Part shown: positions 1,941 to 2,550 of the stretch, one piece after another
Numbering within the stretch: position 1 is the stretch's first letter
Layout: every line of letters starts with the position of its first letter
Source of the DNA: a virus
IMG/VR virus record: IMGVR_UViG_3300045988_092951
Length of the DNA stretch: 34,883 nucleotides
Strand: one strand, 5' to 3'
Program-made: the position numbers and the translations under genes
Notes under the pieces: model-generated
The model's database searches: none
What the model saw: the letters and a program-made list of their open reading frames with translations, nothing else
Told to the model about the DNA's origin: nothing

Positions 1941-2339
1941 CTATTGACCATCGAACATTGCATTAATATTCATTGGTGGCATTACTATTGGTTCTATTCC
2001 TGGTTGTGAAGTTATCAATGTGAGTTCACTCCTCAAATAAGGGAATAAAATAGACACGGTATTTTTATTCATTATTGATTCTCTTAACAAATCATTACTG
2101 CATTCCAAACTGAAATTTCCACAAAGTTCAATAATTATATGAAAATCAGAATCGTTCATTGACGTAACTGTTAGTTTTAATTTAGTGCAAAAAACTGATT
2201 CATCAGATGTTTCAACTTCTTTTTTTAAGTTGAAATTCAACTCATCAATAGGGCACTCATTTGGATTTACATATTCAACTTGTGTAAATTTAATACTTAA
2301 TGATTTTAAGATACTGTGCTGTTTCTGCGAAAGTTCCAT
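1941..2339 (-). CDS. SecB-like chaperone (132 aa), third gene of the cassette
   Basis: AGGAGG RBS 7 nt upstream. TVSILFPYLRSELTLITSQPGIEPIVMPPMNINAMF aligns with E. coli SecB [36 protein letters not shown] (recalled from memory). The upstream blocks also align: LKLTVTS with LRVTVTA, and FHIIIELCGNFSL with FLCEVQQAGIFSI. Confidence 0.8.
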   Translation of the reverse strand: MELSQKQHSILKSLSIKFTQVEYVNPNECPIDELNFNLKKEVETSDESVFCTKLKLTVTSMNDSDFHIIIELCGNFSLECSNDLLRESIMNKNTVSILFPYLRSELTLITSQPGIEPIVMPPMNINAMFDGQ

Positions 2340-2355
2340 ATAATCCTCCTATAAT

Positions 2356-2550
2356 CTATGAAGCCAATAATTCAGTTGAATCGTCTACTAAATAGTATTC
2401 GTCAAATAATTCCATAGCGGTTAGAAACAAAACATCATTCTTGATGCAACCGCTCTTATCAATTACACAACCACCTCGACCTTTGCATACTTCAGAGTAA
2501 CCAATACCATTAAGTTCGGCAATAGATTTTATCATTTCTTTACTTATCAT
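2356..2550 (-). CDS. 64-aa protein, middle gene of the cassette (candidate antitoxin/adaptor)
   Basis: GGAGGG RBS inside the 3' end of the upstream gene, and an ATGA start/stop overlap at 2547-2550. The C-terminus is acidic, aromatic and hydrophobic: VLFLTAMELFDEYYLVDDSTELLAS. Confidence 0.7.
   Translation of the reverse strand: MISKEMIKSIAELNGIGYSEVCKGRGGCVIDKSGCIKNDVLFLTAMELFDEYYLVDDSTELLAS

Follow-up and report, generated by a model that had tools for sequence, protein, structure and literature searches.

The closest described relative of the locus reported here is the CmdTAC system of Escherichia coli (PD-T4-9; ECOR22 and O112ab:H26), which was characterized by Vassallo et al. (2022 and 2024) and Mets et al. 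(2024). In CmdTAC, a gene for an ADP-ribosyltransferase (ART) toxin is followed by a gene for a small antitoxin and then by one for a SecB-like chaperone. It is reported that CmdT ADP-ribosylates mRNA at GA dinucleotides (PMC11618068; bioRxiv 10.1101/2024.02.24.581848), and that it carries an H-Y-[E/D/Q] signature in which Y41 is the essential tyrosine. A change of AA to DD at the terminus of CmdA abolished the toxicity of CmdTA, and the Ala-Ala terminus is therefore the ClpX degron. The same principle, a SecB-like chaperone dedicated to an antitoxin with a C-terminal chaperone addiction domain (ChAD), is found in HigBA1-SecB(TA) of Mycobacterium tuberculosis (Rv1955-1957), MqsRAC and HigBAC, and the ChAD's aromatic residues have been shown to dock in pockets of SecB(TA). 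In this study, we analyzed the IMG/VR virus record IMGVR_UViG_3300045988_092951, a stretch of 34,883 nucleotides (nt) that is called the window below. Positions 1941-3217 on its minus strand probably represent a three-gene toxin-antitoxin-chaperone (TAC) operon of the CmdTAC type, carried as a low-GC "moron" by a temperate siphophage of Ruminococcus and likely serving in abortive-infection defense as CmdTAC does in E. coli.

The order of the three genes is the same as in CmdTAC, and both CmdTAC and HigBAC are likewise located on prophages. All three open reading frames (ORFs) run in the same direction between a GH25-LysM endolysin gene (1066-1881, plus strand) and a tyrosine integrase gene (3602-4777, minus strand), and the following features were recognized:

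Positions 3189 to 3217, minus strand: promoter-like site for the cassette, TTGATA and TATAAT separated by 17 nt, with a TG extension (extended -10) and 11 of 12 consensus matches.
Positions 2547 to 3140, minus strand: putative toxin gene (CmdT-like ART) of 197 amino acids (aa), its TTG start codon lying downstream of the Shine-Dalgarno sequence AAGGTGA.
Positions 2356 to 2550, minus strand: putative antitoxin gene (CmdA position) of 64 aa, its ATG overlapping the toxin stop by 4 nt.
Positions 1941 to 2339, minus strand: SecB-like chaperone gene (CmdC-like) of 132 aa, beginning 16 nt past the antitoxin stop.
Positions 1889 to 1928, no strand assigned (scanned on the plus strand): strong, terminator-like 18-bp hairpin in the gap where the endolysin and chaperone genes converge.
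Positions 3141 to 3600, no strand assigned: non-coding spacer of 460 nt between the cassette and the integrase gene, with a probable attP near ~3560 and a hairpin at 3557-3584.

The GC content of the cassette is 29-33%, against 42-52% in its flanks. All three genes showed purifying selection (pN 0.28 and pS 0.84 for the antitoxin, compared with a 59%-identical homologue, 0.32 and 0.65 for the toxin, 0.22 and 0.69 for the chaperone). Homology to CmdTAC components was found for two of the three genes, the toxin and the chaperone, at the level of hidden Markov models (HMMs), and rests on the PADLOC profiles rather than on the E. coli CmdT, CmdA and CmdC sequences. An earlier note on this DNA had covered the last two genes only, placing both ORFs exactly where we find them on the minus strand, and had missed the ART-like gene lying just outside its coordinates. 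It is the presence of this gene that identifies the system as one of the published CmdTAC/PD-T4-9 type.

The 197-aa protein matched the PADLOC profile PD-T4-9_A with an E-value of 2.5e-7, residues 33-182 aligning with profile positions 29-168 of 187, and gave a weak, sub-threshold match to the PARP catalytic domain of Pfam (E 2.7e-4). Its matches in Pfam and PADLOC were limited to these two, and no RNase toxin family of the kind that defines classical TAC systems was among them. A word-indexed homologue search returned near-identical proteins only (three for the toxin and one for the antitoxin), and the toxin family therefore came to light only by exhaustive phmmer against 1.84 billion representatives, which gave 193 relatives at E ≤ 1e-3, mostly of 175-215 aa and aligned end to end. 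PD-T4-9_A was matched individually by 71 of 91 family members. In the alignment of these 91 sequences, H10, G39, G41 and Y43 were invariant, and W37, L38, F44, Q173 and C175 were conserved in at least 90%. Q173 (85 of 91) and E171 (60 of 91) both lie within the strand ETQICV (E171-x-Q173). The toxin thus carries the H-Y-[E/D/Q] signature reported for CmdT, with E171 or Q173 as the candidate third residue. Y43 has nearly the same residue number as the essential Y41 of CmdT, the two being compared by numbering, without an alignment to E. coli CmdT.

The AlphaFold2 (AF2) model of the toxin, built on the 91-sequence alignment, had a mean predicted local distance difference test score (pLDDT) of 92.8 and a predicted TM score of 0.88. 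In a Foldseek search of the PDB, the top matches of this model were all PARP1/2 catalytic domains (ARTs of the H-Y-E clade) or Tpt1, with probabilities of 0.97-1.0. By this model, the first gene encodes a divergent H-Y-[E/Q] protein of the ART fold. It was reported that CmdT, too, only loosely matched a known structure, that of exotoxin A.

In L002-L004 (three of the homologous loci, which are numbered with L here), the toxin was called as a 185-aa protein. An N-terminal truncation with loss of H10 was considered and rejected, since these loci retain intact N-terminal codons and differ in nothing but the start chosen by the gene caller. Clustering of proteins at 90% identity placed the 64-aa antitoxin (MCQ4878268.1) together with the 197-aa toxin, which is probably an artifact of fused or overlapping gene calls.

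The earlier note had assigned the 132-aa protein to the SecB family, and this assignment held: the protein matched Pfam SecB (PF02556) with an E-value of 9.7e-11 and a score of 42.2 bits (gathering cutoff, 26), nearly over its full length (residues 13-130 of 132, profile positions 17-135 of 141). The best match in any library was the PADLOC profile PD-T4-9_C (E 2.2e-13), and phrog_21664 was also matched. Housekeeping SecB of Proteobacteria (PDB 1QYN and 1FX3) belongs to the same Pfam family and shares the C-terminal block ILFPY.R...., but the present protein lies in a prophage toxin-antitoxin operon and scored only 19-36 bits where the equivalog cutoffs are 103-277. None of the six NCBIfam SecB equivalog cutoffs was reached (TIGR00809 with 36.4 against 102.8 bits, and five PRK05751 sub-models with 19-36 against 143-277). 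Because these cutoffs were not reached and PD-T4-9_C was the best match, we regard the protein as a member of the SecB family that is not a housekeeping SecB, which supports the dedicated, TAC-type chaperone proposed in the earlier note. Pairwise phmmer comparisons with solved SecB structures were weak on their own (E 0.018 for 1fx3 and 0.074 for 1qyn; range 0.018-0.077). They nevertheless aligned the same blocks that the earlier note had matched to E. coli SecB, pairing KLKLTVTS with VLRVTVTA, and ILFPYLRSELT...MNINAMF with ...VNFDALF of SecB. The peptides quoted from the two ORFs are all present in them, whereas the SecB sequence quoted there had one wrong residue (QQAG for QQGG).

The 64-aa protein gave no match in Pfam, where a helix-turn-helix (HTH) was not matched either, NCBIfam, PADLOC or PHROGs. 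A weak "Delta ctenitoxin" match (E 0.028) was dismissed as a match of Cys/Gly composition. The ORF is a real gene: it is kept as the middle ORF in relatives and is under purifying selection (pN 0.28 vs. pS 0.84). Its N-terminal ~35 aa carry the motif IAELNGIGYSE...GRGGCVID. A common pattern, I-A-E-x-Y/N-G-I ... G-G-F/C-I-x-D, was found in the N-terminal ~35 residues of the antitoxin relatives, which occupy the same operon slot, and is followed by a variable tail. It was noted by the authors of the CmdTAC studies that the antitoxin sequences of CmdTAC homologues are "widely variable", and for this reason the published definition of a homologue needs no antitoxin sequence similarity. What it asks for is a second small ORF directly downstream of the toxin, and the 64-aa ORF lies there with its overlap of 4 nt. 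On the other hand, the combination that characterizes classical TAC systems (HigBAC, MqsRAC, HicAB-SecB), an RNase toxin with an HTH/Xre antitoxin bearing a ChAD, was not found in the cassette.

The C-terminal ~25 aa of the antitoxin include F42, F49, Y52 and Y53 and end in LLAS (…F49-D-E-Y52-Y53-L-V-D-D-S-T-E-L-L-A-S64). The ending quoted in the earlier note, ...VLFLTAMELFDEYYLVDDSTELLAS, is indeed that of the protein. Among 81 unique tails of the family, position -1 was A, G, S or C in 99%, and position -2 was small in 85% and aliphatic in 14%. The most frequent endings were AA (42 tails), AC (21) and VA (11), and AS was found in three. Aromatic residues were enriched at positions -10 to -12 (23-36% vs. 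a background of 11%) and again at -25 to -28, and acidic residues at positions -6 and -7. The antitoxin of the window fits this pattern, with aromatics at about -10 to -12, acidic residues and a small C-terminal residue, and its last ~25 aa are thus a predicted ChAD-like tail. This supports the suggestion of the earlier note that the 64-aa protein is the chaperone-addicted partner, as does its place in the antitoxin slot of a conserved three-gene operon. A short N-terminal module followed by a C-terminal tail ending in small residues is likewise the layout of the E. coli antitoxin, and HigA1 of M. tuberculosis combines aromatic anchors in its ChAD with a terminal aliphatic degron (Val-Ala). 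With 64 aa, the antitoxin is the shortest among those bearing the 81 unique tails. Its terminal Ser is one nucleotide away from Ala (TCA vs. GCA) and was present in every near-identical IMG/VR copy seen.

A large subgroup of antitoxins from Lachnospiraceae (L027-L031, L037-L045 and L052-L081) was observed to end in [I/V]-A-C, as in ...YYLQEDFAIAC. In these proteins, which account for 21 of the 81 unique tails, a C-terminal Cys replaces the Ala-Ala degron.

The order of toxin, small ORF and SecB-like gene is maintained in Bacillota genomes and on many viral contigs. A scan of genome contigs with the toxin alignment gave 192 loci, and 80 of them were kept for the synteny counts. These 80 are almost all from Bacillota, including Lachnospiraceae, Oscillospiraceae, Staphylococcus, Streptococcus mitis, Paenibacillus and Bacillus, and in 61 of them a SecB-like ORF lies 250-400 nt downstream of the toxin on the same strand. 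In IMG/VR, 88 viral contigs encode a toxin relative, and the chaperone gene was present in 74 of the 80 loci kept. Chaperones of 65%, 44%, 33% and 44% identity were each preceded by an ORF of 143-216 aa and one of 64-103 aa, and one ORF in the toxin position upstream of the related chaperones has a weak precomputed PARP match. For the antitoxin and for the chaperone, at least 1000 public contigs each were found to encode the protein. Only a single weak match came from GenBank phages in a tblastn search, and another from PLSDB plasmids. The megablast matches among GenBank phages did not cover the cassette and were limited to short human-faecal contigs on the integrase side. The identical cassette adjoins the GH25-LysM endolysin gene on several contigs with at least two different sets of tail and lysis genes. 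Some of these contigs are chromosomally integrated beside bacterial genes, and on others the cassette lies beside an integrase gene.

Besides these triads, 19 of the 80 genome loci (L023, L024, L026, L032, L033, L047, L049, L050 and others) carry a CmdT-like toxin without a SecB-like gene. These toxins of Clostridia are homologous to the present one, and their downstream partners of ~97-184 aa have a similar N-terminal motif (...AFKEACKKNGL...). The tail of the partner, however, is basic (...KxQKGLQKA) in about half of these loci, e.g., L024, L026, L032, L049 and L050, and not aromatic and acidic as in the window. They look like chaperone-independent two-gene relatives. In three independent samples with a 65%-identical chaperone, an IS110-family transposase gene lies between the antitoxin and chaperone genes (L006:1724-2926, L007:1514-2716 and L008:1410-2612). 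This insertion would uncouple the chaperone from the operon, and all three ORFs are still intact. In the Streptococcus satellite phage Javan245 (MK448382.1, L175), an unannotated CmdT-like ORF is followed by "hypothetical" ORFs of 96 and 145 aa (1501-1974, 2026-2316 and 2313-2750), and the three are probably the same triad on an element resembling a phage-inducible chromosomal island.

By homology to E. coli CmdTAC (PMC11618068; bioRxiv 10.1101/2024.02.24.581848), we presume that the operon would be transcribed from its own promoter in the lysogen. The N-terminus of the antitoxin would bind and neutralize the toxin and might aid its folding, and the tetrameric SecB-like chaperone would hold the C-terminal tail and shield the terminal degron from proteolysis of the ClpXP type. 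When another phage infects the cell, a newly made structural protein would compete for the chaperone, and the antitoxin would be degraded. The freed toxin would then ADP-ribosylate RNA, translation would stop, and the infection would be aborted. An aborted infection would protect the lysogen population and therefore the prophage too.

Several points weigh against this interpretation. CmdA sequence homology was not detected, as neither the 64-aa protein nor any of 30 antitoxin relatives matched the PADLOC model PD-T4-9_B at E ≤ 0.1. The antitoxin is half as long as CmdA (64 vs. 121 aa in E. coli), and its C-terminus is Ala-Ser, whereas the degron recognized by ClpX that was validated by experiment is Ala-Ala. 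Its single-sequence AF2 model shows helices at residues 4-14 and 18-22 and a pLDDT below 50 from residue 24 onward, and with an overall pLDDT of 46.5 it is too poor to count as evidence. The toxin matches the HMM derived from E. coli only distantly, with 1.8e-10 as the lowest E-value across the whole Bacillota family, and because of this distance its substrate could differ from that of CmdT. The Foldseek matches of the toxin model are modest as well (E ~1e-3, TM score 0.44). The promoter, ~50 nt upstream of the toxin start, was called from its resemblance to the consensus alone, and the region did not contain more sites of this kind than expected from shuffled sequences; terminator-like sites, by comparison, numbered four against 0.8 expected. 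Finally, toxicity, neutralization, chaperone dependence, the RNA target, the protease and the trigger are all inferred.

There are also differences from the known systems. The host here is a Gram-positive gut anaerobe, and the trigger cannot be Gp23 of T4. The toxins of HigBAC and MqsRAC are RNases (HigB and MqsR), whereas that of the cassette is a predicted ART; the antitoxins of HigBA1-SecB(TA), MqsRAC and HigBAC are HTH/Xre proteins with ChADs of ~45-96 aa, compared with the ~25-aa tail of the present one. One way to read these features together is that the cassette is a naturally minimized TAC system with the shortest antitoxin, an entire ChAD reduced to one aromatic patch of ~25 aa, and an Ala-Ser end. 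We hold this to be a speculative and rather unlikely reading. If it were true, it would imply that the ChAD and SecB interact at one site, compared with four sites for HigA of E. coli, and that the degron is non-canonical or tuned, and the threshold of triggering could differ.

The position of the cassette in the phage bears on its function. The window represents the entire, circularly permuted genome of a temperate siphophage, with PHROG assignments for terminase, portal, the major head protein at 25498-26568, tape measure, endolysin, integrase and a CI-like repressor, in agreement with the phage origin that the earlier note had read from the sequence. The host was named as Ruminococcus, specifically R. 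bicirculans, by flanking bacterial proteins and by the NCBI entries of the cassette proteins. For ~420 nt upstream of the toxin gene, the sequence is conserved with the integrated copies L002 and L003, and the identity then breaks into bacterial flank near ~3560. As identity ends there, attP is probably located at this point and the cassette at the extreme (attR-proximal) end of the prophage. The hairpin at 3557-3584 is perfect, with 11-12 bp. Neither an Rfam scan nor a tRNA scan of the window gave a match, which means that attP does not lie in any tRNA or tmRNA fragment recognized by these scans.

A location at the very end of a mobile element would also suit a plain addiction or stabilization module without phage sensing, by which cells would be killed after loss of the prophage (post-segregational killing) or under general proteotoxic stress. 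The cassette has the architecture of toxin-antitoxin systems with a labile antitoxin, and TAC systems were first described outside phage defense, e.g., HigBA1-SecB of M. tuberculosis. An integrated prophage, however, is not lost by segregation as a plasmid is, and all TAC systems tested for defense so far (CmdTAC, MqsRAC and HigBAC) protected against phage. The cassette occupies the classic position of cargo expressed in lysogeny, and the roles of defense and addiction are not mutually exclusive. Taken alone, addiction therefore seems an improbable explanation.

Phages do encode ARTs that modify host targets, and the cassette could accordingly be imagined as part of the lytic cycle of the phage itself, its ART being a takeover or counter-defense enzyme like Alt, ModA and ModB of T4, and the small and SecB-like proteins being folding or holding factors. 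The folding and accumulation of CmdT depend on CmdA, so that helping the toxin to fold may be the main role of the small protein, and the PHROG families to which the toxin and the chaperone belong are of unknown function. Against this stands the orientation of the cassette, which reads in the direction opposite to that of the late and lysis genes and has its own promoter-like site. It is also no part of the early and late operons, its place being beside attP and the integrase gene. Most of the homologous triads (61 of 80) are on bacterial genome contigs, where they may or may not lie in prophages, and the degron-like C-termini argue for a regulated destruction of the middle protein. A lytic role is therefore very improbable. 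Lastly, the SecB family match, the NCBI label "protein-export chaperone SecB" and the adjacent lysis genes might suggest a general or secretion chaperone supplied to a SecB-less Gram-positive host, e.g., for holin or endolysin export, with unrelated neighbors, but this is hardly credible, given that no SecB equivalog cutoff was reached, that the gene is tightly and widely coupled on the same strand to an ART gene and a small ORF independently of lysis genes, and that it converges on the endolysin gene, across the hairpin at 1889-1928, and is not co-transcribed with it. Taken together, these three explanations are less consistent with the orientation, the location, the degron-like termini and the distribution of the cassette than a CmdTAC-type defense operon is.

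Two further observations were made in the surroundings of the cassette. At 4954-5346 on the minus strand, a gene encodes a protein of 130 aa that combines a zinc ribbon at its N-terminus with a TM2 membrane domain (PF05154, E 4.9e-14). As it is located between the integrase gene and the CI-like repressor gene, it may be another cargo or superinfection-exclusion gene expressed in lysogeny. In both L001 (3957-6578) and L002 (3564-6185), the cassette has the same neighbors, namely DUF389 and class-C beta-lactamase-family genes. Beyond them, L001 carries phage-like small ORFs and an AAA_23 protein, and L002 carries secG and rnr. This difference could result from tandem prophages, an assembly chimera or imprecise excision.

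The CmdTAC family, its spread in Gram-positive bacteria and the association of TAC defense with prophages have already been published, so that the present locus does not open a new category. Its added interest lies only in the minimal antitoxin with its Ala-Ser terminus, in the host, which is a gut commensal, and in a public annotation that misleads. Because the cassette resides on an inducible prophage, its chaperone would also have to ignore the capsid and tail proteins of the phage itself. If the reading as a minimized TAC system were true, the cassette could show how TAC sensors separate self from non-self virion proteins. The very short antitoxin may, in addition, offer a compact model for ChAD recognition and degron control.

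Our analysis places a probable abortive-infection system of the CmdTAC type on a prophage of Ruminococcus bicirculans, a commensal of the human gut. In public databases, both the toxin and the antitoxin are labeled "hypothetical" and the chaperone "protein-export chaperone SecB". To our knowledge, the Gram-positive phylum of the host lacks the SecB export pathway. Re-annotation would correct a SecB label that is misleading in this phylum and would add a phage-borne defense to the ecology of gut phages.

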